IMG/VR virus record: IMGVR_UViG_3300045988_173571
Coordinates: 1-41,745 of that record
Length of the DNA: 41,745 bases
Direction: 5' to 3' (one strand)
From: a virus
Of this stretch, positions 1 through 41,423 are shown one piece after another. Position 1 is the first letter of the stretch. Every line of letters begins with the position of its first letter. The notes under the pieces were generated by a model. That model did no database searches and was not told the origin of the DNA. It saw nothing but the letters and a program-made list of their open reading frames with translations. The translations under genes and the position numbers were made by a program.

Positions 1-55
1 CCTTGATATGGATTTATATATCAAGGTAAAAGAAGAAGCTCAAAAACAAGACCGA
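1..55. repeat. Terminal overlap, exact copy of 41691..41745
   Basis: ccttgatatggatttatatatcaaggtaaaagaagaagctcaaaaacaagaccga is present at both window ends. Confidence 0.95.
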
Positions 56-109
56 AGCGTAAATAATTTTATCCTTCAGGTCGTGATGAACGACGTCCAA
101 AATTCATGA
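1..109 (+). CDS. 3' end of the junction-spanning partition-partner ORF (second ribbon-helix-helix unit); nt 1..55 duplicate 41691..41745
   Basis: The frame opened at 41413 continues at nt 56 (agc gta aat ...) to TGA 107..109. Encoded ...KICLNLDMDLYIKVKEEAQKQDRSVNNFILQVVMNDVQNS has a beta-strand/helix/helix RHH pattern. Confidence 0.65.
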   Translation, partial: LDMDLYIKVKEEAQKQDRSVNNFILQVVMNDVQNS

Positions 110-165
110 GCTATTTTCAAATAAATACAAATTTCATATCTAATAGTCGAAACGCAAATTTGAAT

Positions 166-207
166 ATAAAAAAAGGAGTTACTGTTTTAGTAGCTCCTTT
201 TATTTTA
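166..207. terminator. Bidirectional intrinsic terminator between the convergent partition ORF (+) and the 62-aa ORF (-)
   Basis: Stem ggagttact (175-183) / agtagctcc (189-197), loop gtttt, flanked by an A-run upstream and a T-run downstream. Confidence 0.7.
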
Positions 208-388
208 TCGCCTTTTGGCAATCCTTATACCAAAGACATATATCATCACTGCATTTCTTAGTTGCATAGCAAGGATTATTTCCCTCTTGCTCCTGCAATA
301 TATGTATCATATCAGCTTTTTTTGCTTTCTTTGGTAGCTCTATAGCTCTATCTTTTGCTATAGCTTTTATATCTTTTATTGTTGGCAT
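200..388 (-). CDS. Small SAP/Rho_N-like protein with a C-terminal Cys cluster
   Basis: 62-aa ORF with RBS gaaggtgag upstream. N-terminal IKDIKAIAKDRAIELPKKAKKADMIHIL resembles SAP/Rho-N helix-extended-helix motifs. C-terminal C..C..C.W...C pattern. Confidence 0.55.
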   Translation of the reverse strand: MPTIKDIKAIAKDRAIELPKKAKKADMIHILQEQEGNNPCYATKKCSDDICLWYKDCQKAIK

Positions 389-502
389 CTACTCACCTTC
401 TTTCTATTGGTATATATAAATCTTTTAAAACTAGACACTAACTTTGGCTTTACTTCTGACCCAAAAAAGATTACGCTTGGGAGGATTGCGGAGCCGTGTT
501 CT

Positions 503-553
503 AGATATAGTTATACCTTTAGCGTTCTACTAAAGATATAACTATATTTTTTT
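503..553 (+). terminator. Terminator-like hairpin plus T7 run (may equally be a structural stem of a minus-strand RNA)
   Basis: atatagttata (505-515) pairs with tataactatat (537-547), followed by ttttttt. Confidence 0.35.
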
Positions 554-769
554 ACGCCTGGTTTTCTTGCGTCTGCCAGTCCAGTTTCTACTAGTTCCTG
601 CTTTTACACAGGTAGGATTTTTAACGGTTACCTCATTGCCCCAACCGCCATGCGTTTCCACATGTTATCCTAATACGGCTTACAGATAAAATCTGCAATC
701 CCAATCTGCAATCTAAAATTGCTTTAACCACCGTCGTCTACTTTTAACCATACAATTATATTAACCGCA

Positions 770-795
770 TAAAAAAAGAGCCTTAAAACGGCTCT
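770..795 (-). terminator. Intrinsic terminator on the minus strand inside the ORF-free region
   Basis: Minus strand reads agagcc-gttttaa-ggctct followed by ttttttt. Confidence 0.6.
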
Positions 796-1123
796 GATTT
801 GCAATTTATATAATAGGTTAGGCTTATTAAGGGAGTTTAACGACATTCCGCCCTCTTAGGTAAATTTGGATAGTAGAATATATCCAAATGCCCCGCCGAT
901 TTCCCTGCCTCTGCTGACGATACAGTGGATTACTTTCTGCAATCCTAGTTTATACACCTTGCCAAGTGTAGCTTTCGCTTTCCATGAATAAGCATCATGG
1001 CACGCTGATATGGTTTATTCCCATACCTGATTTTAGATACTAAAAAACACATTTATCATCATTCCCACATGGGAAAAATGTAAATGTGCCTACTTAACCT
1101 ACCTAAAATCATTAATAATTTAT

Positions 1124-1142
1124 GATATGTCGTTGACATATC
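1124..1142. promoter_or_regulatory. Inverted repeat GATATGTC-gtt-GACATATC (operator-like) overlapping the -35 of the sRNA promoter
   Basis: 8-bp perfect arms separated by 3 nt. Confidence 0.45.
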
Positions 1143-1161
1143 GCTAATATATAAGTATAAT
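1133..1161 (+). promoter_or_regulatory. Consensus sigma-70/sigma-A type promoter
   Basis: TTGACA (1133-1138), 17-nt spacer, TATAAT (1156-1161). Confidence 0.7.
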
Positions 1162-1167
1162 GAGTTT

Positions 1168-1250
1168 AGAAAACAACTCGGACAACTTATTTGTGGTAGG
1201 TTGTTCGGCAAGACCAATCGTGTTACCAGCACGTTTGGTCTTTTTTATTT
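1168..1250 (+). ncRNA. Candidate ~80-nt small RNA with two hairpins
   Basis: Lies downstream of the consensus promoter. Hairpin 1 is 1179-1186/1200-1207 with a 13-nt loop uuauuugugguag. Hairpin 2 is aagaccaa..cgtg-uuaccag-cacg..uuggucuu followed by UUUUUUAUUU. No ORF. Confidence 0.5.
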
Positions 1251-1326
1251 CTAAAAACTTTTTATTAAATTGTCAAATTATTTACACCTTTATAATATAT
1301 TAAATTAAACCTATTGTCAAACTAAA

Positions 1327-1360
1327 GTCGATATCAAAATATCGGCTTTTTCTTTTATTT
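1327..1360 (+). terminator. Intrinsic terminator-like hairpin
   Basis: gtcgatat-caaa-atatcggc followed by tttttcttttattt. Confidence 0.5.
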
Positions 1361-1406
1361 AAGTATTTTTATATCATTTTTATAATTATTATATTCTATA
1401 ATTATA

Positions 1407-1458
1407 TTGATTTTATATTATTTTTATAGTATTATTTAGGTAAATAAAGTGATATAAT
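1407..1458 (+). promoter_or_regulatory. Promoter region of the AP2/Zn-ribbon gene (two candidate promoters)
   Basis: TTGATT-17-TATTAT (1407-1435) and an extended -10 TGaTATAAT (1450-1458). Contains TTATATTATTTTT, which is also found in the 40103-40158 repeats. Confidence 0.5.
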
Positions 1459-1466
1459 AAAAAAGA

Positions 1467-1492
1467 GCATTTACTAATGCCCTAGTAAATGC
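1467..1492. promoter_or_regulatory. Hairpin H1 in the 5' leader of the AP2 gene; shares its loop/core with hairpin H2 at 40585..40612
   Basis: gcatttacta-atgccc-tagtaaatgc (10-bp stem), preceded by an A6 run. Core TTACTAATGCCCT(A/G)GTAA is common to both hairpins. Confidence 0.6.
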
Positions 1493-1574
1493 CCTTACAT
1501 CTAATGTTTCTATTAATCAGATGAGCTGTAAATATTATAGCTTATCTTTGATTATCTATCAAGGAGGAGTTTTT

Positions 1575-3272
1575 ATGGAAAAAGAAAATTTGGTAGGTAA
1601 AAAATTTAATATGTTAACTGTATTAGAAGAATTACCTCATTATAAAGTTCGTTGCAAGTGCGATTGTGGCAATGAAAAAATAATTGATAAATATAAGGTA
1701 AAAAATGGAATAATAAAATCTTGCGGTTGTTTAATTTTAAAACAACGAAGATTTCCAAAAGATTATACAGGTAAGAAATTTGGTATGCTTACCATTACCA
1801 AAGAATTAGGGAAGGGAAAAGTCCTAGCCAAATGTGATTGTGGCAGTGAAAAAATATATACAAAAAGTCCTATTATTGCTGGTAAAATAACTTCTTGTGG
1901 TTGTCAAAAAACTATAAATAAAGACTATACAGGACAAAAATTTAATCACCTAACTGTTATAAAAGAACTGGGTTCTGGTAAAATTCTTTGTCGTTGTGAT
2001 TGTGGCAATATCAAAGAGTATGTAAAAAATCCTGTTGTCAAAGGGAATATAAAGTCTTGTGGTTGTATTACACGTGAAGGCTTCCCAAGAGATTTAACAG
2101 GTAAAAAAATTGGATTGCTTACAGTTCTATATCCAACAGATGCAACTTATAAAACTTTTCATTGTCGCTGTGATTGTGGTAATGAAAAAGATATATCAAG
2201 AGGACATCTTGTATCTCAAAATATTAAATCATGTGGCTGTTTACGTGGAAAAAGACTTAAAGAAAATAAAAAAAAGAGCGAGTTTAATAACTTAAATATA
2301 AAAAGAATATTAAAAACAGATGCAAATTCTAATAATACTACCAGTGGGGTTCGTGGTATTATTTGGGCAAAAGAAAGAAATAAATGGAATGTCTATATAT
2401 CCAGAAAAAATCTTGGATATTATGATACCTTAGAAGAAGCTAAAAAAGTTAGAAAAGAAGCAGAAGAAAAATATTTTGCCCCAATTATAAAAGAATATTT
2501 TGCAAATAAAAAAGCAAAAGTTCGTAAATCTTATGTAGGTCAAAAATTTAATATGCTTACAATATTAGAGGAATTAGGTGGCAATAAAGTTCTTTGTCGC
2601 TGTGATTGTGGTAACGTAAAAATACTGACCAAATCAACCGTAATTAAGGGAGGAACCAAATCTTGTGGTTGCTTACTTACAGGTAGGAAAATAAAATCTT
2701 ATATAGGTAAAAAATTTAACCACCTTACTATTATTAAAGAAGATGGTGGCTACAGAACAAAAGCAATCTGCCAATGTGATTGCGGAAATATCATTAAAGC
2801 CCTAAAAAAAGATGTCATTTTAGGGGCGAAAAAATATTGTGGCGATAAAAACTGCCCTTATAAAACAAAAAGACATGTTACTTCAAAAAAAAATATAATA
2901 GGTAAAAAATTTAATATGTTAACTGTATTAGAAGAATTTTCTACTATAGATTCTAAAGGGCGAAGTATAAAAAAACTACGTTGTAAATGTGATTGTGGCA
3001 ATGTTGTTGAAGTAATAAAAGCAAACGTTACTCGTGGGCATACCAAATCTTGCGGGTGTTTAAATAAAAACAGACATATGATAAATAGAACAGGTCAAAA
3101 ATTCGGTATGCTCACCATTTTAAAAGAGCTAGGAAATAACAAAGTCCTTTGTCAATGCGATTGTGGAAGTATAAAAGAATATACAAAATCTTTAGTTGTC
3201 AAAGGTAATACTAAATCATGTGGGTGTACTAGAGTAGAAAGTATACGAAAAGCAAAAAAGACTACCAAATAA
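1575..3272 (+). CDS. AP2-domain DNA-binding protein carrying eight tandem Cys-rich Zn-ribbon repeats (4 + AP2 + 4)
   Basis: AGGAGG at 1563-1568 lies 6 nt before ATG 1575 (the track start at 1521 has no RBS). Eight units of G(K/Q)KF(N/G)xLT(V/I)...C.CDCG(N/S)...SCGC. Central SGVRGIIWAKERNKWNVYISRKNLGYYDTLEEAKKVRKEAE matches the AP2 pattern. Confidence 0.85.
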   Translation: MEKENLVGKKFNMLTVLEELPHYKVRCKCDCGNEKIIDKYKVKNGIIKSCGCLILKQRRFPKDYTGKKFGMLTITKELGKGKVLAKCDCGSEKIYTKSPIIAGKITSCGCQKTINKDYTGQKFNHLTVIKELGSGKILCRCDCGNIKEYVKNPVVKGNIKSCGCITREGFPRDLTGKKIGLLTVLYPTDATYKTFHCRCDCGNEKDISRGHLVSQNIKSCGCLRGKRLKENKKKSEFNNLNIKRILKTDANSNNTTSGVRGIIWAKERNKWNVYISRKNLGYYDTLEEAKKVRKEAEEKYFAPIIKEYFANKKAKVRKSYVGQKFNMLTILEELGGNKVLCRCDCGNVKILTKSTVIKGGTKSCGCLLTGRKIKSYIGKKFNHLTIIKEDGGYRTKAICQCDCGNIIKALKKDVILGAKKYCGDKNCPYKTKRHVTSKKNIIGKKFNMLTVLEEFSTIDSKGRSIKKLRCKCDCGNVVEVIKANVTRGHTKSCGCLNKNRHMINRTGQKFGMLTILKELGNNKVLCQCDCGSIKEYTKSLVVKGNTKSCGCTRVESIRKAKKTTK

Positions 3273-3288
3273 GGTAGTCTTTTTCTTT
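3259..3288 (+). terminator. Intrinsic terminator of the AP2 gene
   Basis: agactacc-aaataa-ggtagtct followed by ttttcttt. The loop contains the stop codon. Confidence 0.7.
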
Positions 3289-3290
3289 AC

Positions 3291-3333
3291 TAAAAAATAA
3301 GTTTTTCCGCAGATTAACTTATCAAAAACTTAT
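3291..3333 (-). terminator. Intrinsic terminator ending the minus-strand late unit
   Basis: 10-bp stem ataagttttt (3297-3306) / aaaaacttat (3324-3333), with a T-run on the minus strand. Confidence 0.65.
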
Positions 3334-3416
3334 CGCAACTAGTTTTTGTGTTCTTTTATTTAAATATCAATAATGTTCCTGCTATTATTTGCCATAATAG
3401 CCTTTGTTTTTTCAGT

Positions 3417-3854
3417 TTATTTTGCTCCTGCTCGGATATCTTCAATGATTGTGAGACTTTGTTCAATTCTTCGCTGGCTATCATCAATGAGTCCTGTGCT
3501 TGTTGTGATTGAGTCTTGAGCGTTTGTAATTGCTGTGTTAATGTTTGTATTTGTGTCTGTGATGTCATCAGCTGTGTCTTTAGCTTCGTTATTTGACTGT
3601 TCAATTCTTCCGACTGTTTCGATGCTGTCATCAATTCCTGATTGGATTTGTTCAATAGATTCTGTAGCTCGTTGTTGTTCTTCTTGAGCTGTATTAAGTT
3701 GGTTTCTAGTGTCGTTAGTTGTTCCTGTGTTATCGTATACGTTTGCGAACAGTAACCAGTAGGCAAAGCAAATACACAGCACAAGCAAAAAAACACAGCA
3801 CATTTTTTTATGTTCCTGGATAAAGCTTTTAATTTTACTAAGCACATTTATCAT
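3417..3854 (-). CDS. Membrane-anchored protein (N-terminal TM helix, acidic Asp/Glu/Asn/Thr-rich ectodomain with recurring IEQ motifs); function unknown
   Basis: ATG 3854 overlaps the TGA of the upstream ORF (coupling). Third codon positions are mostly A/T/C, as in the rest of the genome. TM segment is CCVFLLVLCICFAYWLLF. Confidence 0.55.
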   Translation of the reverse strand: MINVLSKIKSFIQEHKKMCCVFLLVLCICFAYWLLFANVYDNTGTTNDTRNQLNTAQEEQQRATESIEQIQSGIDDSIETVGRIEQSNNEAKDTADDITDTNTNINTAITNAQDSITTSTGLIDDSQRRIEQSLTIIEDIRAGAK

Positions 3855-4090
3855 CACACTTCAAATTCTTCAATAACTTTATTTTCTGCACGCTGTTCAC
3901 AGAAATAAATTACATCACCATGTTCACTATGTCCCATGGTCAAATATCTATTATCACCTTGTAAATTAAATTTGTCGTTAATATCGAGTAATGCACTATT
4001 AATATTCTTGGTATTAGTTTTATACACATTTTTAATATATGCCACTACTTCTTCAGGTAATTTTTTTGTACTAATAATTTTTACTAACAT
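3854..4090 (-). CDS. Hypothetical protein (78 aa)
   Basis: RBS aaggagta 7 nt before the ATG. Compact spacing within the operon. Confidence 0.6.
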   Translation of the reverse strand: MLVKIISTKKLPEEVVAYIKNVYKTNTKNINSALLDINDKFNLQGDNRYLTMGHSEHGDVIYFCEQRAENKVIEEFEV

Positions 4091-4119
4091 CTTTCATTAC
4101 TCCTTTTTTACTAATCTTA

Positions 4120-4302
4120 TTAACGTAAAAATTCAATTCTATGTTCTTCATCTACTCCACTTTCTATTGGTTCATGCTTTTCATTTAAAATAAATTTTAA
4201 TGGAGCAATTATTACAGTCTTCTCATCTGCATATATACATTTGTAGGGAATCAAATTATTTCCTTCAGCTAAATGCAAATAATCATTTGTACATAAATTC
4301 AT
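4120..4302 (-). CDS. Hypothetical protein (60 aa)
   Basis: RBS aaggaga 8 nt before the ATG. Confidence 0.5.
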   Translation of the reverse strand: MNLCTNDYLHLAEGNNLIPYKCIYADEKTVIIAPLKFILNEKHEPIESGVDEEHRIEFLR

Positions 4303-4499
4303 TGTTTTATTCTCCTTAAATTGAAATTTTATTTATTAATTAACCGTTGCATGCAGAAAATATCCTGGAAAAATTCTGCAATCTAATTTCAAAACACTAC
4401 ATACATACAACTATAAAAATACCTGGTATTTTGAATAAGCTAAAATCTAAAAGTCCTTTATTTATAAGGCTTTATAAGATTTTATAAATTACATTTTTT

Positions 4500-5192
4500 T
4501 CAAAGTCCTTCATTTTTTAATAGTTCTAATGCATCAGCTTTTTCATTAATAAAACGATTTCTAAGACCTATTTTTACTACGTCATAGCTACCATTTGCCC
4601 AATCTTTGGGGCTGTGATAAGTACCTTTAGAAGTCATATATGCATTATCACATTCTTGGATCAGAAAATCATATATGCATTCAATCATTTCTCTATCAAA
4701 GCATTTATCATCTACCCAGCTAATCTCTGGGTGTCCCATAAGTCTTACTGCTTCTGTCCAAAGCTCATACATATTATTTGGGCCATATTGAATGGCACGA
4801 CTAAATAATACAGCTTTCATAGCTTCACTATGTTTGGTGATGTCATATTTACTATTTAATAGATTAAAATAACCTGCATTATAATACATATCGCCTGCAT
4901 ATTCGTCTTGCAGTTTGCCAAAACCTTCGGCGTCTATTGTACCGATAGATTTCCATTCATTTATAAATTCTCTTGAATTAACTGGATAGGCATTTTTCAG
5001 GACTCTGCCATAATTTGCATAGCAGTCTTCAGGGTAATTGCACAGCCATTCAACAAAATTTTCAACTACTCCTGCTTCACTGGAAAACTGATACCTTCCA
5101 TAAGATTTACCGCCTAAATCTCCGCTTCCTGTACTGACTGTTGCAGGATTGCCACCTGCTTCATACTTAAGTACCAATTGATTGTTTAACAT
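4500..5192 (-). CDS. Putative endolysin, lysozyme-like peptidoglycan hydrolase (VgrG3 C-terminal / chitosanase-like pattern)
   Basis: N-terminal YEAGGNPATVSTGSGDLGGKSYGRYQFSS fits the E-x-GG...GG-x-SYG-x-YQ catalytic-region pattern of that lysozyme-like family. RBS aggagtg. Sits in the lysis region. Confidence 0.65.
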   Translation of the reverse strand: MLNNQLVLKYEAGGNPATVSTGSGDLGGKSYGRYQFSSEAGVVENFVEWLCNYPEDCYANYGRVLKNAYPVNSREFINEWKSIGTIDAEGFGKLQDEYAGDMYYNAGYFNLLNSKYDITKHSEAMKAVLFSRAIQYGPNNMYELWTEAVRLMGHPEISWVDDKCFDREMIECIYDFLIQECDNAYMTSKGTYHSPKDWANGSYDVVKIGLRNRFINEKADALELLKNEGL

Positions 5193-5204
5193 TTTTCACA
5201 CTCC

Positions 5205-5282
5205 TAAATAAGAAAACCGCCACAATATTAAGTTATTAGTAGCGGTTTTTACTGTTACTGTATTAAGTTTCCAAAATGTAAA
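5205..5282 (-). promoter_or_regulatory. Late regulatory element, copy A: promoter-like TTTACA...AGTAAC followed by a leader hairpin and T-run, upstream of the endolysin
   Basis: Minus strand reads TTTACATTTTGGAAACTTAATACAGTAAC..AACCGCTAC-17nt-GTGGCGGTT-TTCTTATTT. About 70 nt are closely similar to 32880..32956. Confidence 0.55.
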
Positions 5283-5301
5283 TTTTAAAGTCTATACCTT
5301 T

Positions 5302-5766
5302 TTAATAAATAATATAATTTTTTGCTATATATTCATCAAATATTTTACCTTCTTCGCCATCAATGTCATTTAGATATACGGCTTTGGCAAAGTCAATATA
5401 GGTACGTATATCATTTTTAAATACGTTACCTGCGTCAGAATAGAGCATATTTAAAAGATAATACCAATCATATTTATTTACTTTTAAATTATTTTGTGTA
5501 GCTAGATTACTAGTCTGCTCTATGCTCCAATGCTCACCAAAAGAACCATCAAAATGTTTCATTTTTCCTACTGCTTCTTTGGCCATGTTTTCGCAAAAAT
5601 GTTTTCCATGTTTTAATACATGCAATTTTAAACTAATGCGGTTGTATGTGCCCTCGTCAAAATGTTTCATCATGCGTAGCATTTTACAAGATAACTCTAT
5701 CGCTTCATCTTTTTTATAATCATCTTGCAAAAGTTCTTCATATATTTTTTCACAATTTATTTTCAT
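5302..5766 (-). CDS. Hypothetical protein (154 aa), family of unknown function with a HWSIEQT...YDWYYLLNMLYSD motif
   Basis: RBS gaggaaa 6 nt before ATG 5766. The longer track start at 5793 would overlap the upstream gene. Confidence 0.6.
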   Translation of the reverse strand: MKINCEKIYEELLQDDYKKDEAIELSCKMLRMMKHFDEGTYNRISLKLHVLKHGKHFCENMAKEAVGKMKHFDGSFGEHWSIEQTSNLATQNNLKVNKYDWYYLLNMLYSDAGNVFKNDIRTYIDFAKAVYLNDIDGEEGKIFDEYIAKNYIIY

Positions 5767-5776
5767 TGTATTTTCC

Positions 5777-6208
5777 TCATGCCAATTTGACAATTACTAA
5801 ATCTGCTGTATTTACCGTTACACCTGTTGTTTGTACCTGTAATTGTACATTTACATTATTGGCTGTAGGCGTACATGGGCAAGTGCAAGGAACTTCAATT
5901 ATTGTTGTAATACTTGCCGTATATTCTGTTGCGTCTGCTGTTGTTACTGTAGCACTAGCACCTGCTATAGCATTATTATTATTTAATAATTGTAATGTTA
6001 CAGGTCCAGCAGCAGTCCCCAAAAGATTTGCATTAACTGTTACTAAATAAAGCCCTGCTTTTTGTAACGTTGCTGGAGTAGTTCCTGCTGTGAATGCTAT
6101 GCTTTGCCCTGTTACGTTAGCACTGGTGAAAGTAACCAAGCTATTAGCAGTCAATGCCTGTGCTGTAGTATTTATAGCATTTAATGTAGATTTTCGATAA
6201 CAAGTCAT
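5777..6208 (-). CDS. Stand-alone BclA C-terminal-like (C1q/TNF-like jelly-roll) domain protein
   Basis: 143 aa. TAQALTANSLVTF...AGLYLVTVNANL...VTLQLLNNN...TTIIEV...ADLVIVKLA parallels the strand pattern of the Bacillus exosporium BclA C-terminal domain. No collagen-like repeats. Confidence 0.6.
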   Translation of the reverse strand: MTCYRKSTLNAINTTAQALTANSLVTFTSANVTGQSIAFTAGTTPATLQKAGLYLVTVNANLLGTAAGPVTLQLLNNNNAIAGASATVTTADATEYTASITTIIEVPCTCPCTPTANNVNVQLQVQTTGVTVNTADLVIVKLA

Positions 6209-6226
6209 TATATTTACCTTCTTTCA

Positions 6227-6253
6227 TAAAAAAGAGCGGAGTTGCTCCGCTCT
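6227..6253 (-). terminator. Intrinsic terminator between the 205-aa and BclA-C-like genes
   Basis: Minus strand reads agagcggag-caa-ctccgctct followed by tttttta. Confidence 0.65.
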
Positions 6254-6279
6254 TAGTGGTGCAATCTATGCACAATTAT

Positions 6280-6897
6280 TTAGTTGAAACAGCCATTGCC
6301 ATAATAGCAAGAGTTTGGATTTGGTACATTATACGCAGGTATTGCTGTTGGTCGTACCTGTGCAATTATGTTTGCAGTTTGAGCCAAGTTGCTAAGCTGT
6401 CCTTGAGCTGATTGAAGCTGTAAGGAAAGGTCTGCAATTCTTTGGTCTTTTGCATTTGATTCCATTTGACAAAGTTTATCTAAGATATGTTGCGTATTTG
6501 CTGTAGCATTTGTTGTTATAGCACAAGTATTTTGTGCTGCTTCATATCTTACAGCATCTATATTACGATTTGTTTCACAGCAGCAAGCTTGAGCTTGATA
6601 GCCATTTTGTGCAAGTTGCATTTGTAAGTTTGAACCTGCCTGCCAAATATCTTTTTGTGTTTGAAACTGTTGATTTGCTACTTGAGTAAATCCAGTATTT
6701 AGTGTGTTATTTAAATTGCTATAAATAAAATCATTATTGATTGTATTCACACCACTATTTCCTAAGCCACCAATACCACCGCCACCACATAAGAGGATAA
6801 CTAAGAGTAATACCCATACGTTACCGCCCATGCCGTCATTATCTCGGTTCATTTCATAAACGGGGAGTACGCCACCGCCATTCATCATGTCTGCCAT
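6280..6897 (-). CDS. Membrane protein with a Gly-rich TM segment and a Cys-containing Q/N/A-rich helical ectodomain (CCCETNRN motif)
   Basis: 205 aa. RBS gaggtg 6 nt before the ATG. TM segment VWVLLLVILLCGGGGIGGLG. Cysteines at ACCCE, NTCAI, KLCQ and a C-terminal SCYYGNGC. Confidence 0.65.
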   Translation of the reverse strand: MADMMNGGGVLPVYEMNRDNDGMGGNVWVLLLVILLCGGGGIGGLGNSGVNTINNDFIYSNLNNTLNTGFTQVANQQFQTQKDIWQAGSNLQMQLAQNGYQAQACCCETNRNIDAVRYEAAQNTCAITTNATANTQHILDKLCQMESNAKDQRIADLSLQLQSAQGQLSNLAQTANIIAQVRPTAIPAYNVPNPNSCYYGNGCFN

Positions 6898-6971
6898 TTT
6901 TTACACCTCATTTGTGTATTTATTTATTAAAAATTTAGGTGTGCACTCCCCAAAGTTTTAATCTTAAGTTG

Positions 6972-7208
6972 TTAAGGCTTTACGCCCATTTGAGCTAACA
7001 TTTGTTGTAGCTGCTCTTGTGGTATTCCTTGTTTTTGTGCTAGTTGCATTACCATTTGTTGCATTTGCTGTGGGCTTTTTCCTTGTACCATTTGCATTAC
7101 TTGTGCATAGTTTGGATTATTCCCATACATACCTTGCAACATACCTAAAGGATTAGCATTACCCCTTAGTTGGTTCATCATTCCCATTATTTGCATTGGA
7201 TTTATCAT
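6972..7208 (-). CDS. Small Met/Gln-rich protein (78 aa; 14 Met, 18 Gln)
   Basis: RBS aaggtggt 7 nt before ATG 7208. A/T-rich third codon positions. Overlaps the 3' end of the upstream gene by 50 nt. Confidence 0.6.
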   Translation of the reverse strand: MINPMQIMGMMNQLRGNANPLGMLQGMYGNNPNYAQVMQMVQGKSPQQMQQMVMQLAQKQGIPQEQLQQMLAQMGVKP

Positions 7209-7638
7209 TTGTCATACCACCTTTTATATAATTTTCTAAGCTGATAATCCTGTTTTCTAATATCTTCACACTGTTTGTATCTGCGTATACAGGCAATTCA
7301 TTTTGCCCTAATGTATATACATTAATAATTGATTGAGCATTCATATCTATGGTTTTCGTATAGATGCAATTTTGAGCAGGGCAAGGAAAATAATGAGTAT
7401 TACCATCTGCTTCTATCAAGATTGCTTTCACTTCTTCAACGTTTGTTACCACTCGCCCCTTAAGTCCAGTAGGTATCATCTGCTGTTGATTTTGTGGTTG
7501 ATTAGTAAATTGTGTATTGACCTGCTGATATGGGTTCATCTGATTATAATTTTGTGGTTGTCGCTGTTGCTGTTGAAAATTAGGATTATAATATGGATTC
7601 ATATTTTGATTTTGATAAAATGGTGTATTCTCAAACAT
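7159..7638 (-). CDS. Protein with a Q/N/Y/P-rich prion-like N-terminus and a globular C-terminal domain
   Basis: 159 aa. 29 of the first 55 residues are Q or N. RBS gaggtgg. Confidence 0.7.
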   Translation of the reverse strand: MFENTPFYQNQNMNPYYNPNFQQQQRQPQNYNQMNPYQQVNTQFTNQPQNQQQMIPTGLKGRVVTNVEEVKAILIEADGNTHYFPCPAQNCIYTKTIDMNAQSIINVYTLGQNELPVYADTNSVKILENRIISLENYIKGGMTNDKSNANNGNDEPTKG

Positions 7639-7671
7639 CTTGCCACCTCATTTCTTTAATTTAATTATAGA

Positions 7672-7764
7672 TGAAAAAATAAAGGCTAAAGTGTCGATAA
7701 AGCTTATAGTTTATGGGGTTTAAACCGTCATAAATCTGTAAAATTTATCTACTCTTTAGCCTTT
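7672..7764 (-). other. Structured intergenic element: 11-bp closing stem enclosing ~62 nt, followed by a T-run
   Basis: aaaggctaaag (7681-7691) pairs with ctttagccttt (7754-7764). Inner stems ataaat/atttat and ggttt/aaacc. Minus strand continues attttttc. Confidence 0.35.
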
Positions 7765-7767
7765 TTA

Positions 7768-8016
7768 TTATATGAATTTACTTTTTATCAGCGACTTACT
7801 TATAAGGTCATAGCTTCTTTTAATGTCTCTCTGGATTGTTTCTTCAGATAGGTTCATCATTTGAGCTATTTTCACTATTTCTATATTCTTAAGTATTCGC
7901 AGTTCTATTATTTTTTGCTGTCTAGGAGTAATCTTCGCATGATATAAGATATCTTCAAACGCTTGTCTATCTGCATTTATAAGCCAGTATCTGGCATTTT
8001 TTCTATTTTTATCCAT
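7768..8016 (-). CDS. Sigma-70 region-4-like HTH protein (82 aa), probable late-gene transcription regulator
   Basis: ITPRQQKIIELRILKNIEIVKIAQMMNLSEETIQRDIKRSYDLI matches the region 4 (LTPRQREV..L..S..EIA..LG.S..TV) pattern. No regions 2 or 3. Confidence 0.7.
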   Translation of the reverse strand: MDKNRKNARYWLINADRQAFEDILYHAKITPRQQKIIELRILKNIEIVKIAQMMNLSEETIQRDIKRSYDLISKSLIKSKFI

Positions 8017-10933: not shown

Positions 10934-13900
10934 TTAATATCTCCTTACGTTCTTAGATTTCCCCTTTTTCTTTGGTTGTTTCGGTTTTTCTGGTATCACT
11001 CTTTCTACTGGCTTTTTATTAAAGAGTGCAGACCAAATAATATTTTTAAGGTTCGTATCATATCGACCATCACCATCAGCTATATATTGCATAGTGGTGA
11101 AGACACTATTTGCCATGGTACTTGTTATACCTGTTCTAGCTGCAAAAAATGTTGTACCTATTTCGCCTGTAGCTTTTGCTATATCTGCATAGGTTATGCG
11201 TTTTGGTGGCTTTTGGTACTGTTTATCTTCAAGCATGGTCTTTCTTTTCTTTGCCCCTGCCTTCATATATTCAGCTTGCCATTTAGCTTCCTTATCTGCT
11301 ATCTCTAAATCTTTTTCTGCTTTTTTATCTAGCAGTTTATATAGTGCAGTTATCTTTTCACCGCCAGCAAGTGCCACATTAGAAAAGCCAATACCTCTAC
11401 CATAATCTGTACCTTCAAAACTTTCATTGATAAAAAAGCTTGCTATATCTCGTACACCCCACATAGTGCCAGCCATAGTGGATAAAGTATTTTTGCCAAA
11501 CTGTGTCAAAAATCTTTGCATTGCAGGTATCTCTATTTTTTCTTCTGTACCCTCTGCATTTTTCACCTTTTCATATTTATGCTTATCATCATTTCCATCA
11601 CCGAGCAGTGCCATACGTAGCATAGTAGATAATGCAGAAGTAAGCACAATACGATATAGAAAAGACCTTGCCACAGGTAGCCACCTTGTAATATTTTCAC
11701 CCATTGTAGTCGGCTTCATAAATTTTCCTTTATAGTAAGCTTGCAAGATAGCATTAGCCTGCGTATTAAAGAAAGTGTAAAAAGGTGTAAATAATTTCAG
11801 CAACTCTCCACCTTTTTGGATAGATGCTAAATCTTTTGTCTGTCCACTTCCGAATACTTCACGAATAGATTTATCAGCTTCAGCAATGGAACGACTTTCA
11901 GCTTCAGCCAAGATTTCTTTATCTGTTAAGAATCTAAGCTCACTCGCATTATCTAGCTCTACTTCCGCCATATATAAATCTTTTTGTAGTTGATTTAATT
12001 CTTCTCTTGTATTTACAAAAGTCTTAAAATCCCCCACTTGATTTATATTTGTACCTTGCACATCAAAATTTGATTTCAATGCATTTTGTTGCAGGTCCAT
12101 TATTCTAGCTCTGATTGTAGATACCTTAGCTTGTGCATTTTGCAATTTTTCTACATTAGCTTCATTTTCTTTTTTTACCTCATTAAGTTTTTTAGCATAG
12201 GCATCTTTATAGCTTCTACACCATAACGGAGCAGAAAACATCAAATCACTATAGGTCATAAGTGTGTATGCATGTTCTTTTAAAAATCCTGTTACTAATC
12301 TATCTTCATCAAATAATCCCGGAATGTATTTTATATCCCTGTCCATATGATTTAGCCTATTCTTCATAAAGATTGATTTATGCAACACTTCTTGATATTT
12401 ACTTATATTTGTATAGTAATCTGCTATTGCTACTAAAGATTTCATAGCACCTAATTTATCCATCATTGGTGCAATGTTGGTCATATTTTCAATTATTGGA
12501 TAAAGTCTATATCCCATTATTGCAAATGTGGAATTTGTTCTTAAATAGCTAAGCATTTTAGACACTTTTTGCACTGTTTTATTATTACTAGCTTCTGGTA
12601 TCACTCGCCAATTATCCACTGCCCATTCATCTAATACCTGGTATATTTCTTTACCCATAGTTCTATTTACATATTCTTCAAATTGTTTATTTTTTACTAA
12701 TCTATAAACATCTCTTGCTGGTATTCTATGCGTTATATTGTGGATTACATTTGATAAATGGTCAGGTATTACACTAAATTCTAAAAGCAACGCTCTATCA
12801 ATATTTGCCTGTGAACGTGCCTTTGTAAATCCTCTGCCAGTGCCTAATACTTGTGCACCGCTCATAGTACGTCTTACCGCTTCATTTACCTCTTGTTCAT
12901 TGGCTCTATTGCTCTTTAGTGGATTAGCTACTATAGGATAATAGCCACCTTCTAAATGCAATATCTCGCCATCAGGTAACTTCACATCAAATGGTGTTGG
13001 CTGTTGCGGTTTTAGTGTTACGCCGTTTAATTCTTGCTCTACCCTTACTGTATCTTTCCAGAAAGAATGTAAATGATTCCATATATCTTGTACCATTTGC
13101 CAATCCTTTTTGGTCATATGCTTTTCAACAAATTCTTTGAGATATTCTTCTGTCAAGCCAAATCCTACAGCAAGACGGCTTCTATTTATATCATTACCTA
13201 GGTTTAGAGCCATACAGATAATATTTTCTTTTGATAGATTTTCTACTGTACCATCTTCAAATTCCAATTTATACTGCTGTTTCTTCCATGATAATTTTTC
13301 ACTATGGCTATAATCTTTTAAAATTTCTTTTATCTTATATACGTTTTTGGTCATCATTTCAGCTTCAAGATTAGATGCTCGCTCATACGTTTCATACAGA
13401 TATTTATGAGCTTTTGTTCCCAAAATATTTATTATTTCTTCTGGTTTCATCATGGAACTTAAATATTTTGCACCGCCACGAGCCATAGCGTCCCCAATAA
13501 GTGGTATCTTATCCACTAAATCGTTATAGCCAAGACCGCCTTTATCTGGATTTATCTTTTTATTTATTACCATTGACCTGTTATAAGCAGTATCATCAAG
13601 TATTATTTCATTTATAGCATCATCTATAGATTTCCCCTGTATAGTTTTTAGCTTGAATTTATCTCTACCTGTTGTATATAAGATATCTAGTGCTTCCACT
13701 GCGTCCTCGAATTGGGCTATAGTCATAGATTGATAACCGCTGAAATCACTACGGCTTGTTATCTCTAATATATCTGTTGGGGTATATTCTAAATCCAAGC
13801 TGTCTTGTAATCCCTTGAATAAATCTGCAAGTGGTGTTATTCCGTCTACAGGTGGATTAGCATCTTTATTTGTGATACCTAAGATATAGGCTAAATGTTT

Positions 13901-16900
13901 ATGCCAGTATCGTTCTTGTGCTGGTAATTTTATGGATCGTACTTTTAGCTGTTTATTCACCTTCTCTATTTTCTTTTGTATATACAATTTATTTTTCAAT
14001 GCCTTTTGAGCCATAGCAGCAGAAATATACTGTGCTTCTTTTTCTTTCATGGCACGCTCCCAGTTACTAGCCTTTACAGCTTGTTTTACTCTGCGTGCAT
14101 GCATACTTTCATTCTTACGATAAAGAGCTACATTACAAGCTTCAAAAATAGTTTTGCCGTCCAAAGCACGCTCTGCCATTTCCTTGAACATTTTCAATTT
14201 ACCTTCATGGGCTTTTTCTATGGCTTCACGATTTATCTTTTGCTGTTTTGTTTCTTCTACAAATTGTTTAAAAGCTTCAGCTAAAGTTTCTTTTGTATTG
14301 CTATTAAACATTGCTTCAATTTTTCCTAAATCTTTGGCATTCCATTTAGTGCTAAATCTAAGCTTATTCAAAGCGTTCATCACATTTTTTACTCTAGCAT
14401 CTTCTTTATCTACTTTTAAATCTGTGTAATCATCAAGGGCATTTAATTTATCTTCTACATCTTGCATAGCAACTTGCGTTTTAGAGCCTATTTTATTTAT
14501 CAATTTTACTTTTTCATTAAATATCCTAGTTTCCATTGCCACAAGTTTACTTGTATACTTACTATCTTCCATAGCCTGCAAGATATTTTCTTCGGATAAA
14601 TGGCTTTCCATTAGTTCAGTATCTAAAGTTTTTTCATACTGCTTCATGTATTCATCAAGTGCAGTCTGTATAGGCTTAGTATTTTTTAGGGCCTGTTTAT
14701 ATTCTTCTACGCTACCAAACCAATTAAGAACTATATTTATATCTCCTGCTTCTTTATAAGCTTCTTGAGCTATATATACAGGTTGATTTTCTAATTCATT
14801 TAGTTTATAAGCTCGCTCTTTTTCTACACGTTCATCAAATTTTGCTTTGGCTTCAGCTTTTAAATCTTGCATTACTATCTTCATTAAATGCTCTTTGGCT
14901 TCTTCTGTAGCTTCCTTGTGCCAACGTTTATAAGTTTGTTCTTCCGTTTCATCAAGTAGCTTTTCACCGCCTGCCTTAGTGATATCTCTATATCTATCAT
15001 CTAATGCCATTTGATTTATTTCTTCTTCTGTAGCCACCATACGTTGCATTATGGCTTCTACTTTTGAGCTTGCTACTCCGCCAATAGAAGTAAATCCAAT
15101 ATAGATATCACGCAAGAATTTTTTAAACTTACGGAACACATCTTTTAAGCCTTTACTTGGTGCAGTTCCTTTTTGTAAATATAATTCAAATGCCCTTGCA
15201 AATCGTTCTTGTCGCCATGCTTCTTTTAATTCTTCCACTTTGGCTACATCACCAGCATTTTTAGCATTTATTATACTTTCATGACGTGCTTTAAATTCTT
15301 TGTACCATGGAGCATTTTTATATTCATCAATGGATTTTTCATTTTTCCAACTTGCCCAATCATTTACTATATCCAATTCTTTTTTAGATAATTCATCAAT
15401 CTTAGCAAGCTCATCTAAATCCATTAAAAACATATGTGCCATTTCATGTACAAAAGTTGATTCATCAGCAGATTTATACAGATTGATAACACGCTGACCA
15501 TTACTCAATAAAGTGATATCACCTTTTATATTGGCAGTAGTTTCATTTTTTATTTTTTGTACCTTTTTCTGTACTACTTTTTTATTTTTTTCTTCTACTT
15601 TTTCAGCAGTTTCTTGTATGATATTTACTTCTTTATTGGTTAATTTAGGTGCTTCTTTTTTTGCTGTTATAATTACTTTCCCATCACTGCTAACAATTGC
15701 ATTTTCATCATGAATAGTTGGTTTATTTAATAGATTATAATCTCCTCTACCTACTCTATTAGCAGTTTCCCTTGCTTCTTGTTCACCCCCTAAATTCATA
15801 TAAACTTCTATATCATCTATTTTTTGCAAGTCCCAATATAACTTTGCTTTTTCAAATTTTTCTAAATCAGCATTTTTTAATGCTTCAAGTTCACTTGTTC
15901 CCTCTTTTCTCAAGTTTTCACTTTGAGCTTTTGATTTCCAAAAAGCACTATTATATGCTTTTATTTCCTTCAATACTTCATCATAAAGTTGGTCTAAAAT
16001 TTCTTGCTTAGAATTTAAATTTCCGCCACCTGCAAACCCTTCTATTTTCTGAATTAAGTGTTGTATTTCATGTACGATATTAATTTTCATTTTATCTGTA
16101 TCTACATTCAATCTATCATTTATTACTATTACACTTAATTTTTTGCCATTAATATCTACATCTCTAGCACTAGCTTGATGTTCTATACTTTTACTTTTTT
16201 CTTTTAAGACTAATATATCTCTAAGTTGTGGATAGGCTTCATATAGTTTTTCATTCTTATAAATCTTATCTAATGAAATAGAATTTGTTTCATCAAAACT
16301 GTTTGCTAAAGTTATATTATTTATTTTTTCGAGAGGTTTCATATCAAATAATTTAGTATCATCAGGTATTTCAAATCTCCATTTATTATCTTTTCCTTTT
16401 ACCCAACCTGTATATTGCCAAATTACCTCATCAGTATATTCACCCTCTGCATCTAATTGCTTAGCTATTTTTAATTGTTCAATGTTTTTATTTAGTGCCT
16501 TTTCGCCTGCAAATTGTTTATATGTTCCTTTTCCTTTTACAGTATTTAGAGCAAATCTTTCATTGTAATAAGTCATGGCTGTGTAGTTTTCATTGCCATG
16601 TCTTCGCATTATGTCTGCCACTATATCTGCATGTCTAGCAAATAAAATAGCACTCATACGGCTTGCACGTTTTACTTTTCCGCCAGCATTTTGAAGTTGT
16701 TTTGATAGGCGATTATATACTGCATATCCGTCTTTAGTAAGTCCTTCAGCCAACCTCATTTCTACACCATTTAAATTGCTAAGCTGTGGTTTTATCTCAT
16801 CTAATACCTTCAAATTATTATCTATATCATCTAGTATATTTTTATTTTCAGCCAAAGCTTGCACAGCTTCAGGAGTTGTTGCTTGCCATGTTGGTATAGA

Positions 16901-36479: not shown

Positions 36480-37382
36480 TTAGCTCGTATTGCTTTTGCT
36501 TCTAGGCTTTTTGTATTTTATTAAGAAATTTACTTTGTTTAAATCCTGTGTAAAGTAGATTTCTTTTTTGAGTCTTTTAGCTTCCATTTTTTCCTGCAAG
36601 TTTATTCGCCTTGTAGGTTTATCAATTTTTATTAGTCTGTAAAATTGGTATTCATAATCGCTTTCTCCGTTACCGAATGTATAAATACCATTTATAAGAC
36701 TGTTTTTGTCCAGCATGTATCCTTTTGGAATTCTTGGTTCTCTTAGCCAATATTTCCTACGCACAATAACGCTAGTAACCTGCGGTTTTCGCAAGTTTTT
36801 GCTAGCGTTGTACCTTTTTTTATATATAGTTGGAGCAGTAAAGAAAGCATTTCTATTTTTCTTTACCATATAATTTGCGAGGTCTTCGGCATCTGTTATT
36901 TGTCCGCCATAGATTTTTACAGATACGAAGCCATGACCCCAAAGATTTTTTATATCCGTTGGATTTACCTCACAGCCTTCAACTTTTAAAAGCAAATGAT
37001 GGTGAATTCTCTGCTGTTTTGAAGTACATTCCGTACAAAATATATACTTCACCACAGCATTTTTCTTTTTATAGAAACGAATTAGCTTCTGCCTAAAATT
37101 AGCCAAATGCTTTTTTGCTTCTTCTGGTGTCGGTTCTTTTTTATTTTCCTCTTTCTTATCTTTATAAGTTAGAGATAGAAATAAATCCCCATCACCAAAA
37201 TTATTTAGAATAAGAAGCCTTAACAAATTTATAGAATTCTTGTTGTTTACTTCTTCTTGTGCCAAAGGAGTAAGTCCCATTTTTGGGCTTCTTATATTAT
37301 TCTTTACAGGTAATTTCTTGGTGTAATATATCTCCAAGATATTATTATTATTTATACTTGTCTGTTTCTTAACATAAGACAT
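36480..37382 (-). CDS. HUH rolling-circle replication initiator (pC194 / phiX174 A superfamily-like)
   Basis: Motif 1 FLSLTY, motif 2 RIHHHLLLK, motif 3 LANYMVKK, in the canonical order and spacing. Confidence 0.75.
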   Translation of the reverse strand: MSYVKKQTSINNNNILEIYYTKKLPVKNNIRSPKMGLTPLAQEEVNNKNSINLLRLLILNNFGDGDLFLSLTYKDKKEENKKEPTPEEAKKHLANFRQKLIRFYKKKNAVVKYIFCTECTSKQQRIHHHLLLKVEGCEVNPTDIKNLWGHGFVSVKIYGGQITDAEDLANYMVKKNRNAFFTAPTIYKKRYNASKNLRKPQVTSVIVRRKYWLREPRIPKGYMLDKNSLINGIYTFGNGESDYEYQFYRLIKIDKPTRRINLQEKMEAKRLKKEIYFTQDLNKVNFLIKYKKPRSKSNTS

Positions 37383-38357: not shown

Positions 38358-38855
38358 ATGCTAGATGAAAATATAAAAGAGCGTATAAAGGAAATAAGAA
38401 AATATTACCAATTAAATCAAGACGATTTTGGAAAAAAACTTGGTATAACTAGAAGTGTAGTTGTTAATATTGAATTAGGTAGAGCTCCAATAAAGAATTT
38501 ATTAATAGACCATGTTTGTGATATCTATTCTATTAATAAAGAATGGTTATTATATGGAGCTGGTGAAATGCTTAAAAGTACAGAACAAAATTTGCTAAAT
38601 GACCTAGTAAAAGAATTCGATTTAGATGAAGATGAATTATCAATTATAAAAAGCTATATAAATCTTCCTAAAATTCAGCGTAAAAATTTTGTTTCTATTT
38701 TAAAAGCTATGGTAAGTCCTTCTGATGAAGAAAAAACTTACGACGAAAAGCTTAATCAAGTCGCTGATGAACTTAAGGTAACAGAGAAAAAAGGAACATA
38801 TCAAGTTTCCACTACTACAAATACTACAAACAGTTCCACAGAAAAAAGGGCATAA
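38358..38855 (+). CDS. XRE/CI-like repressor
   Basis: IKEIRKYYQLNQDDFGKKLGITRSVVVNIELGR is an XRE HTH. Has a C-terminal extension and RBS aaggagg. Divergent from the early unit. Confidence 0.85.
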   Translation: MLDENIKERIKEIRKYYQLNQDDFGKKLGITRSVVVNIELGRAPIKNLLIDHVCDIYSINKEWLLYGAGEMLKSTEQNLLNDLVKEFDLDEDELSIIKSYINLPKIQRKNFVSILKAMVSPSDEEKTYDEKLNQVADELKVTEKKGTYQVSTTTNTTNSSTEKRA

Positions 38856-40005: not shown

Positions 40006-40102
40006 GCCAAAAATATGTATTCTCTAAATGGATTTTATCAAAAATTTGACCGAGTTTGATTGACTCTGCCAAAAATACTATATATTGTGTTTTATTCTAA
40101 AT

Positions 40103-40158
40103 TTATATTATTTTTATGGTATTTTTATATTATTTTTCTATTGACATTATATTATTTA
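40103..40158. repeat. Three direct repeats TTATATTATTT(T) with an exact 22-bp period
   Basis: Copies start at 40103, 40125 and 40147. A fourth copy is at 1413 in the AP2 promoter. Confidence 0.55.
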
Positions 40159-40169
40159 TATGGTATTAT
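40141..40169 (+). promoter_or_regulatory. Promoter of the acidic-protein gene
   Basis: TTGACA (40141-40146), 17 nt, TGgTATTAT extended -10. Confidence 0.6.
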
Positions 40170-40706: not shown

Positions 40707-41423
40707 ATGATAATTAGTATTGTAAACCAAAAAGGCGGTGTTGGTAAAACTACTACTGCCCAAAACCTAGCAGCAGGACTAAGAAAATTTTATAAAAAGA
40801 AAGTCTTGCTAATTGACCTAGATTCACAATGCAATTTATCTAATGCAGAAAATTGCATGAATAATAAGTATAATATTTTCGATATGCTCACAGAAGAAAC
40901 AGCTGTAGATGAGTGTATCCAAAACGATATGATTGCTGGCTCGCCTGATATCGTAAAAATTCAAGGTGGTGCAGGATATGAATTTATCTTGCACGATTTA
41001 CTCATGCCCATAAAAGATAAATATGACTACATCATTATTGATACAGCTCCAGCACTTGGAATTACTACAATTAATGCTTTATGTGCGAGTGATTATATAA
41101 TCATCACTGCCCATGCAGATACTTTTTCTGCACAGGGTATAAATATCTTGATAGAAAAAATACAAAAGGTGCAAGTAAAAATAATGGGTGTTCTTCTAAC
41201 TAGATTTAAAGCTAGAACTATAATAGCTCAAAACATATTAGAAGACTTAAAAATAAAAACAGTTGATTATGGAACAAGAGTTTTTGATACGCAAATAAGA
41301 GAATGCGTAGCTATTCCAGAAGCTCAAAACTTAAAGCAAAATATTTTCGATTATGCAAAATATAGTAATGCTGGTCGAGATTATAAAAGTTTCGTTAACG
41401 AGGTAATAAATTATGGCAAATAA
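40707..41423 (+). CDS. parA: Partition ATPase, small type Ib ParA
   Basis: Deviant Walker A NQKGGVGKTTT, IIIDTAP Walker B-like motif, 238 aa with no N-terminal HTH domain. Confidence 0.92.
   Translation: MIISIVNQKGGVGKTTTAQNLAAGLRKFYKKKVLLIDLDSQCNLSNAENCMNNKYNIFDMLTEETAVDECIQNDMIAGSPDIVKIQGGAGYEFILHDLLMPIKDKYDYIIIDTAPALGITTINALCASDYIIITAHADTFSAQGINILIEKIQKVQVKIMGVLLTRFKARTIIAQNILEDLKIKTVDYGTRVFDTQIRECVAIPEAQNLKQNIFDYAKYSNAGRDYKSFVNEVINYGK

Follow-up and report, generated by a model that had tools for sequence, protein, structure and literature searches.

What does a gut phage element gain from a protein in which eight small cysteine-rich units are strung around a single DNA-binding domain? 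The question is raised by a gene on the plus strand of IMG/VR virus record IMGVR_UViG_3300045988_173571, which comes from a human gut metagenome, is probably a phage-plasmid, and was analysed here over its full length of 41,745 nucleotides (hereafter, the window). We propose, with a probability of about 0.6, that this gene encodes a sequence-specific DNA-binding repressor of the CapR/AP2 (CasPR) type which lacks a nuclease and would most likely act on a host immunity locus or a competing element. Repressors of the CasPR type were described in 2026 with one or two CapR domains only, and how CapR and AP2 read DNA and what extra CapR domains contribute are open questions in that work (Sanderson et al., bioRxiv 10.64898/2026.02.23.707548). 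The window protein, with its arrangement of four CapR units, AP2 and four CapR units, is a new architectural variant of this already known class.

Eight CapR-type units around a central AP2-like domain

The open reading frame (ORF) listed at this locus runs from 1521 to 3272 on the plus strand, and the ATG at 1575, 5 nt past the motif AAGGAGGAG (1561-1569), gives a protein of 565 residues. An earlier note on this DNA had described the product as eight cysteine-rich units of about 55 residues, four on each side of one AP2-like domain, and this layout was confirmed. A regular expression and a hidden Markov model (HMM) built from 308 homologous units both returned eight units; together with the AP2 domain and the linkers they account for all 565 residues (AlphaFold2 model and unit HMM). 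The protein is very basic (isoelectric point, 9.7), with 123 Lys and Arg against 49 Asp and Glu, and Lys or Arg makes up 22% of its residues. Its parts are the following.

1575..3272, plus strand: coding sequence of the 565-residue protein, four CapR-type units, helical linker, AP2 and four CapR-type units, with 39 Cys
1587..1733, plus strand: CapR-type unit 1, residues 5-53 (unit HMM E = 3e-19; three strands and a helix in AlphaFold2, predicted local distance difference test score, pLDDT, ~90)
1758..1910, plus strand: CapR-type unit 2, residues 62-112, without the first Cys (AKCDCG) (regular expression and unit HMM)
1920..2072, plus strand: CapR-type unit 3, residues 116-166 (regular expression and unit HMM)
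2088..2246, plus strand: CapR-type unit 4, residues 172-224, forming the CasPR-like core with the linker and AP2 (BLASTP to A006 gp22)
2340..2516, plus strand: AP2-like domain, residues 256-314, three strands and a long helix (sub-threshold Pfam AP2 match and AlphaFold2)
2529..2675, plus strand: CapR-type unit 5, residues 319-367 (unit HMM)
2697..2852, plus strand: CapR-type unit 6, residues 375-426, with the variant second knuckle YCGDKNC (regular expression and unit HMM)
2889..3068, plus strand: CapR-type unit 7, residues 439-498, with a longer first hairpin (unit HMM)
3087..3233, plus strand: CapR-type unit 8, residues 505-553 (unit HMM)

The units follow the pattern G(K/Q)K(F/I)(N/G)xLT, a hairpin, (C)xCDCG, 17 residues and SCGC. 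The motif given in the earlier note is present as it stood there and is refined in two places, by the absence of the first Cys from unit 2 and by a CX4C knuckle in unit 6. CxCxC...CxC is kept in 7/8 units. There are five Cys per unit, the first of them dispensable, and the ligands of each unit are likely to be two CxC pairs, that of CDCG and that of SCGC. The variant of unit 6 is retained in orthologs (RCNDKNC in the P0006 product). Loss of the Cys ligands in relatives had been named as an argument against zinc ribbons; in MAFFT alignments of full-length relatives, made without selection for the motif, conservation of the Cys/Gly scaffold is 90% or more. In a full-length AlphaFold2 model (40 sequences; mean pLDDT, 80) all eight units take the same predicted fold of three strands and a short helix (pLDDT ~85-93), and the linkers between them are of low confidence. 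The units are 37 to 65% identical to one another in protein and 58 to 76% in DNA and, judged by their sequences, are old copies; the 40-nt identity noticed earlier between unit 1 (1594-1633) and unit 7 (2899-2938) is exact.

The earlier note saw an AP2 domain flanked by zinc-ribbon repeats in a poly-zinc-finger-like architecture. An AP2-type domain with Cys4-type zinc modules is indeed what the gene encodes, although the modules do not make a new poly-zinc-finger class and correspond to the CapR homology domain (Pfam PF21817). This domain was originally defined in CapR, a repressor of the Vibrio PLE satellite, and in the homing endonucleases of ICP1, and CapR mutants with Cys changed to Ser lose DNA binding (Netter 2021, PMC8096241). 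Tandem CapR-type arrays have been described in T5orf172 homing endonucleases as "beads on a string" whose repeats recombine (Barth 2023, PMC10448857). The ICP1 proteins gp165 and gp174 match the Pfam CapR model at 1e-57 to 1e-63, in four stretches each. An hhalign comparison of the 308-unit profile with four CapR repeats of these two proteins gave a probability of 72% (E = 3.3e-5) over 53 collinear columns, in a register that brings G..F, L.V, both Cys knuckles and L..G..CGC into line. This makes a moderate case for profile-level homology between the window units and bona fide CapR repeats. The CDC of CxCDCG is aligned with the CxxC of CapR, which fits the dispensable first Cys of unit 2.

The arrays of CapR and the ICP1 proteins resemble that of the window protein in their small Cys4 zinc-finger-like module (G-x-x-F...L-x-V...C..C...L-x-x-G...CGC), its tandem repetition and the recombination of its repeats. 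They differ in the first knuckle, which is CxC (within CxCxC) in the window protein and CxxC in ICP1 and PLE CapR, and in the partner domain, AP2 in the window protein and T5orf172/GIY-YIG in ICP1; the array of the window protein is also longer than those of gp165 and gp174. Eukaryotic poly-zinc-finger proteins of the C2H2 type and TALE arrays, a functional analogy only, likewise consist of tandem DNA-reading modules that vary in a short segment, whereas their fold and ligand pattern are unrelated and their units have 28 to 34 residues instead of ~55.

CasPRs are phage CapR+AP2 proteins that bind specific sites inside cas genes and stall RNA polymerase, thereby silencing type I-B or II-A CRISPR systems; CasPRIB1 binds a 30-bp site inside cas8b, where RNA polymerase is stalled, acts during lysogeny, and loses its activity with each of the changes C33/35/37S, C56/58S, R138E and R149E (bioRxiv 10.64898/2026.02.23.707548). 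In BLASTP, residues 173-305 of the window protein (unit 4, linker and AP2) are collinear with gp22 of Listeria phage A006 at 35% identity (E = 9e-23), and the CapR part of gp22 aligns also with the other window units. A006 gp22 carries C33, C35, C37, C56, C58, R138 and R149, and its gene lies directly after AcrIIA1, between the lysin gene and attP, opposite the late genes. On the strength of the same seven essential residues and the position beside AcrIIA1, we take gp22 to be a CasPRIB1 ortholog. Its C33/35/37 and C56/58 fall opposite C197/199/201 and C220/222 in unit 4 of the window protein; of the two essential arginines of CasPRIB1, R149 corresponds to window R293 and R138 to Tyr282. Together with the hhalign register, this alignment indicates that the window units are remote but genuine CapR-type modules and that the core of the protein is CasPR-like.

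A separate model of this core (unit 4, linker and AP2; 147 residues, 60 sequences) has a mean pLDDT of 90.5 and a secondary structure that fits AP2; in the full-length model the central part is helical at 222-246, forms strands at 262-283 and then a long helix at 286-311. The Pfam AP2 model matches 46/60 of the aligned core homologs (best E, 9e-8). AP2 lies downstream of a CapR unit via a helical linker, and scans with Pfam, NCBIfam and PADLOC found no nuclease domain (HNH, GIY-YIG or T5orf172) in the window protein; none was found in the adjoining sequence either. CasPRIB1, CasPRIB2 and CasPRIIA1 have the same CxCxC...CxC module, helical linker and AP2 without a nuclease, and are likewise basic and borne by temperate elements, opposite late or lysis genes. 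They differ in the number and placement of CapR units, the window protein having eight, four of them C-terminal to AP2, and the characterised CasPRs one or two, all N-terminal. CasPRIB2 has helix-turn-helix (HTH) domains and the window protein has none. The three-strand-plus-helix AP2 and its signature (GVRG..W...KW.A.I...LG.F.T.EEA) are common to the window protein and the PF00847 proteins, among them HNH-AP2 homing endonucleases and plant and apicomplexan AP2/ERF factors. The window protein differs from these in the absence of HNH, in an AP2 that stays below threshold, and in the setting of that domain between arrays of zinc modules.

The best PHROG match of the window protein, phrog_374 (E = 2e-108, nine stretches), bears the label "HNH endonuclease", which is misleading here because the window protein has no nuclease domain. 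In phrog_374 and in RefSeq this label is given by association with AP2. RefSeq and PHROGs also apply it to other nuclease-free CapR-AP2 proteins such as A006 gp22 (L001, 3983-4480), which looks like systematic misannotation through AP2. A sequence search of PDB with the window protein gave nothing meaningful. The Pfam, NCBIfam and PADLOC scans of the whole protein and of single units produced, apart from a weak AP2 match, only one to the CA_C0660 family putative sactipeptide bacteriocin model (NCBIfam NF035954), which scored 23 bits, over three stretches, against a cutoff of 60 and was set aside as noise from the Cys pattern. That family, of 64 residues, may have a CxC...CGC pattern in common with CapR-type units.

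Eight units are rare but not unique. The family is large, with 36,230 cluster representatives (clusters at 50% identity) matching at E<=1e-3, 10,770 at E<=1e-10 and 443 at E<=1e-30. We counted units in 358 retrieved relatives, a sample biased toward long proteins, and found at least eight in 43 of them, the window protein included, with a maximum of 13; AP2 was also present in 10 of these 43. The 187 relatives with AP2 bear out the view that the module normally occurs once or twice beside this domain (one unit in 36 proteins, two in 71, three in 13, four in 21, five in 20, six in 8, seven in 8, eight in 6, ten in 1, eleven in 2 and twelve in 1), and most of the short relatives that a query with the core brought up combine AP2 with one or two units. 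The earlier description of an eight-unit array as exceptional was too strong, given these 43 relatives with 8 to 13 units and the tandem CapR-type arrays already on record (PMC10448857). The window protein stands at the far end of the distribution and beyond any characterised CasPR (one or two units). Within the retrieved set, the window protein has the layout with four units on each side of AP2 in common with its orthologs P0001, P0002, P0004, P0005 and P0006 and with no other protein. Other large AP2-bearing proteins, with C for a CapR-type unit and A for AP2, have the layouts C9-A-C3, C8-A-C3, C7-A-C3 and C11-A, some with an added HTH_3 domain.

A mobile and mosaic gene cassette

The gene is a self-contained mobile cassette whose leader and terminator are conserved in two unrelated backbones. 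Orthologs P0006, P0007 and P0009, 53 to 62% identical to the window protein, sit in a P22-like prophage, where they lie at the prophage edge beside the host PEPCK gene and without ParA. Two to three small genes precede the gene in the ortholog loci, including one for a 149-residue HTH protein whose N-terminus weakly resembles HTH domains of the HigA/HipB type. The window locus was aligned with three ortholog loci (L004, L002 and L087); similarity spans from ~1450, at the -10 region, to ~3340, and the flanks are unrelated. The signals at the two ends of the cassette are as follows.

1450..1458, plus strand: extended -10 sequence TGATATAAT at the upstream edge of the conserved cassette, read from the sequence, a putative promoter element
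1455..1574, plus strand: conserved 5' leader with hairpins at 1463-1496 and 1519-1547 and the ribosome-binding site AAGGAGGAG (ortholog alignment)
3254..3292, no strand assigned: terminator-like hairpin flanked by an A run and a T run, at the 3' end of the cassette, the conserved block continuing to ~3340

The promoter, leader hairpin and terminator that had been ascribed to the gene find their counterparts in these promoter-like and terminator-like signals. A promoter scan did not list the TGATATAAT site, its nearest plus-strand match being 9/12 at 1407-1435. The leader RNA has a predicted folding energy of -33.7 kcal/mol (z = -4.4); one base pair of its first hairpin (1463-1496) has changed on both sides, from G-C to A-T, in L002 and L087, and this hairpin can also be read as a minus-strand terminator. 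At the other end, the stop codon falls in the loop of the hairpin at 3254-3285, after which comes TTTTTCTTT. This hairpin is listed as a minus-strand terminator, and the runs that flank it at either side make it look bidirectional. Positions 1480-1540 of the leader are 97 to 98% identical in L004, L002 and L087, although the proteins there are only 53 to 62% identical, and the terminator block (3280-3340) is 90% conserved. The leader thus exceeds the coding sequence in conservation, possibly because it serves as an autoregulatory operator, contains an RNA element or anchors recombination. The earlier note held expression in the lysogen to be probable; for the carrier state it is plausible by analogy with CasPRIB1, which is active in lysogeny.

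Within the coding sequence, conservation is uneven. The N-terminal units share only ~60% DNA identity with those of the ortholog loci. Over the C-terminal units the similarity is patchy: units 6 and 8 of L002 reach 97 to 100% beside blocks of ~70%, and units 5 to 8 of P0007 range from 72 to 98%. In the phage-plasmid population, units 1 to 4 are nearly invariant and units 5 to 8 are variable. Unit 8 of P0365 bears the variable segment of unit 7, which indicates gene conversion. When differences between orthologs are pooled over the units, they cluster between the knuckles, at register +5 to +17, where several positions vary in 41 to 58%, whereas the Cys/Gly/Lys scaffold varies in 0 to 8%. Against the proposal that the gene is still evolving by internal duplication, new copies are not the main source of change; the units are positionally orthologous across alleles and the variation is a block-wise mosaic with gene conversion. 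Such a mosaic at the scale of units fits recombination that re-assorts specificity rather than ongoing simple duplication, and re-assortment of this kind has been proposed for the CapR arrays of homing endonucleases (PMC10448857).

Fourteen near-identical alleles of the gene lie on ~42-kb contigs of other samples. The nearest named relative, annotated from Megamonas hypermegale, is 43% identical to the window protein, and a close ortholog is absent from 185,579 GTDB representative genomes, where the best matches, in Clostridia and others, have 26 to 45% identity. A megablast search of window positions 1-8000 against phage records gave no match.

Proposed repressor function and its rivals

As we picture it, the eight CapR units would be small zinc-stabilised modules of three strands and a helix, and the central AP2 a DNA reader of another kind. 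Short flexible linkers would string the nine modules together like beads, and jointly these might recognise a long or composite DNA site. Once bound, the protein would repress transcription, either by sitting on a promoter or by blocking the path of RNA polymerase. Zinc binding, DNA binding, repression and the type of target are carried over from experiments on CapR and the CasPRs. The analogy with CasPRIB1, CasPRIB2, CasPRIIA1 and PLE CapR also suggests that the target would lie outside the cassette, in a host immunity locus (the cas genes first) or a competing mobile element that would be silenced while the phage-plasmid is carried. The gene would in this case be a self-contained moron that brings along its promoter, leader and terminator, and unit-scale recombination would re-assort its specificity.

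Several results weigh against this repressor reading. The Pfam model PF21817 is not matched in hmmscan by the whole window protein (E<=1) or by its single units (E<=10), and hmmsearch of the unit HMM against ICP1 gp165 and gp174 gave scores near zero; the kinship with these proteins shows only when profile is compared with profile. A006 gp22 likewise has no PF21817 match by hmmscan, one core homolog matches the model directly (E = 0.0047), and the CapR assignment of the CasPRs was itself made by HHpred (bioRxiv 10.64898/2026.02.23.707548). The Pfam AP2 model (PF00847) reaches 17.5 bits (E = 0.005) on the window protein against a gathering score of 33.3. At the position of CasPRIB1 R138 the window protein has Tyr282; R138 and R149 are described as conserved in the Listeria representatives only (bioRxiv 10.64898/2026.02.23.707548). 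Foldseek searches of PDB with the full model and with the 147-residue core returned no match at E<=0.001, a result that is uninformative rather than negative because small domains and a bead-like model are poor queries. A006 gp22 adjoins AcrIIA1, whereas no recognisable acr gene or small companion gene adjoins the window gene, and the 149-residue HTH protein upstream in the ortholog loci has no similarity to AcrIIA1. One copy from the same phage-plasmid population, P0372, ends after unit 6 (455 residues), and another (P0370/P0371) is split inside AP2 on one 37.9-kb contig; such copies mean either that the gene is dispensable at least sometimes or that there are assembly errors.

The conserved leader bears on a rival explanation, self-regulation, in which the protein would bind its own leader or other sites of the phage-plasmid (the late operon, or the replication and partition region) and control copy number or the choice between the carrier and the lytic state. 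We consider this unlikely, if worth keeping in mind. A 115-nt leader that is 97 to 98% conserved, against ~60% DNA identity in the N-terminal units, would be consistent with an operator recognised by units 5 to 8, the better-conserved C-terminal ones; the gene lies beside ParA, a ribbon-helix-helix (RHH) protein and a 1.1-kb ORF-poor region; and the CasPR authors propose autoregulatory roles for extra domains (bioRxiv 10.64898/2026.02.23.707548). The conservation of the leader might just as well come from an RNA element or a recombination anchor, however, and ParA and the RHH protein already make a complete partition pair. The same cassette also occurs in integrated P22-like prophages with a different backbone and no ParA, which indicates that it is not tied to maintenance of the window replicon. 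On the same ground, a partition protein was rejected as the primary explanation.

A second rival places the target in another mobile element. The protein would act like PLE CapR and shut down genes that a rival phage or satellite cannot do without, such as its structural genes, thereby excluding that rival from the carrier cell. The founding member of the family sets a precedent, as PLE CapR represses the ICP1 capsid operon (PMC8096241), the CasPR authors raise the possibility (bioRxiv 10.64898/2026.02.23.707548), and block-wise allele mosaicism is typical of arms-race loci. Nevertheless, no candidate rival or target sequence is known, and the CapR+AP2 proteins characterised so far all target cas genes, so that we hold this version to be highly doubtful. 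The weakest rival, that the protein is a decayed or orphaned DNA-binding arm of a homing endonuclease (a non-functional remnant, or the targeting subunit of a nuclease encoded elsewhere), could appeal to the "HNH endonuclease" family label in PHROG and RefSeq and to the truncated or split copies, but is very improbable because the 565-codon frame, all Cys knuckles and the gene's own ribosome-binding site, promoter and terminator are intact, full-length orthologs recur in many samples and two backbones, no nuclease domain lies in or beside the gene, and nuclease-free CapR+AP2 proteins are demonstrably functional repressors (bioRxiv 10.64898/2026.02.23.707548).

The proposed CasPR-type repressor could be taken one step further, to a re-programmable DNA reader in which each unit would read a short word through the segment between its knuckles, and unit swaps and conversions would re-target the protein to host defence genes. 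Blocks of 97 to 100% identity beside blocks of ~60%, the conversion from unit 7 to unit 8 and the clustering of differences at +5 to +17 are compatible with this idea and do not prove it, and we rate it as quite unlikely. If true, the array would be a prokaryotic counterpart of the poly-zinc-finger and TALE arrays, with a decipherable code. The main value of the window protein lies in offering a natural system for learning how CapR arrays read DNA. Together with the mosaic alleles of gut phage-plasmids and prophages it forms a natural series, in which four N-terminal and four C-terminal units are swapped, converted or lost. This series could show whether units contribute additively to the length and specificity of the site, which residues read bases, and whether gut anaerobes, beyond Listeria and Streptococcus, have defence systems that such proteins silence. 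In practical terms, the locus flags a widespread annotation error, the naming of nuclease-free CapR-AP2 proteins as "HNH endonuclease".

The carrier element and the surroundings of the gene

An exact direct overlap of 55 nt between positions 1-55 and 41691-41745 shows the window to be a circular assembly with a length of 41,690 bp. Tail and terminase genes lie in a minus-strand block from ~3356 to 37382. The window gene ends the plus-strand block, convergent with the end of this late block, which is topologically the place of A006 gp22. This agrees with the earlier statement that the gene runs opposite the late genes and alongside maintenance genes, the late block being on the minus strand and ParA and the HTH repressor on the plus strand. 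With its replication initiator, HTH repressor and ParA, the phage genome carries genes for maintenance of the kind that plasmids have, hence the probable phage-plasmid. Other features of the element are listed below.

10934-19405, minus strand: single ORF of 2,823 residues in the tail region, beside a tail-fibre-like ORF of 677 residues
35067-36035, minus strand: protein with a radical SAM domain (phrog_9298, E = 6e-83), located between genes for replication and for packaging
36480-37382, minus strand: replication initiator
38358-38855, plus strand: HTH repressor
40081-40162: AT-rich repeat with a 22-bp period, upstream of the par region
40707-41423, plus strand: ParA
41413 to ~106, across the junction: RHH/Arc-like gene, 128 residues, directly after ParA

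The ORF-poor region of ~1.1 kb that adjoins the window gene lies at 400-1500; between 400 and 1100 its G+C content is 35 to 40%, above that of the flanks, and no ORF exceeds ~45 residues. A perfect sigma-70 consensus (TTGACA-17-TATAAT, 12/12) stands on the plus strand at 1133-1161 and a plus-strand terminator-like hairpin with a T run at 1324-1349, and the interval 1133-1349 could encode a small RNA of ~190 nt. Rfam searches of the window and of positions 1-1600 gave nothing at gathering scores. Across the window, TCTGCAATC boxes with up to one mismatch number 20, a mild excess over the 12 ± 3.7 expected. Three exact plus-strand copies of TCTGCAATC, not linked to the protein, fall in the ORF-poor region (692-700, 705-713 and 936-944). 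Just past the terminator, on the minus strand at 3356-3857, two overlapping ORFs of 163 and 146 residues lie in different frames, and both look like coiled-coil or low-complexity sequence.

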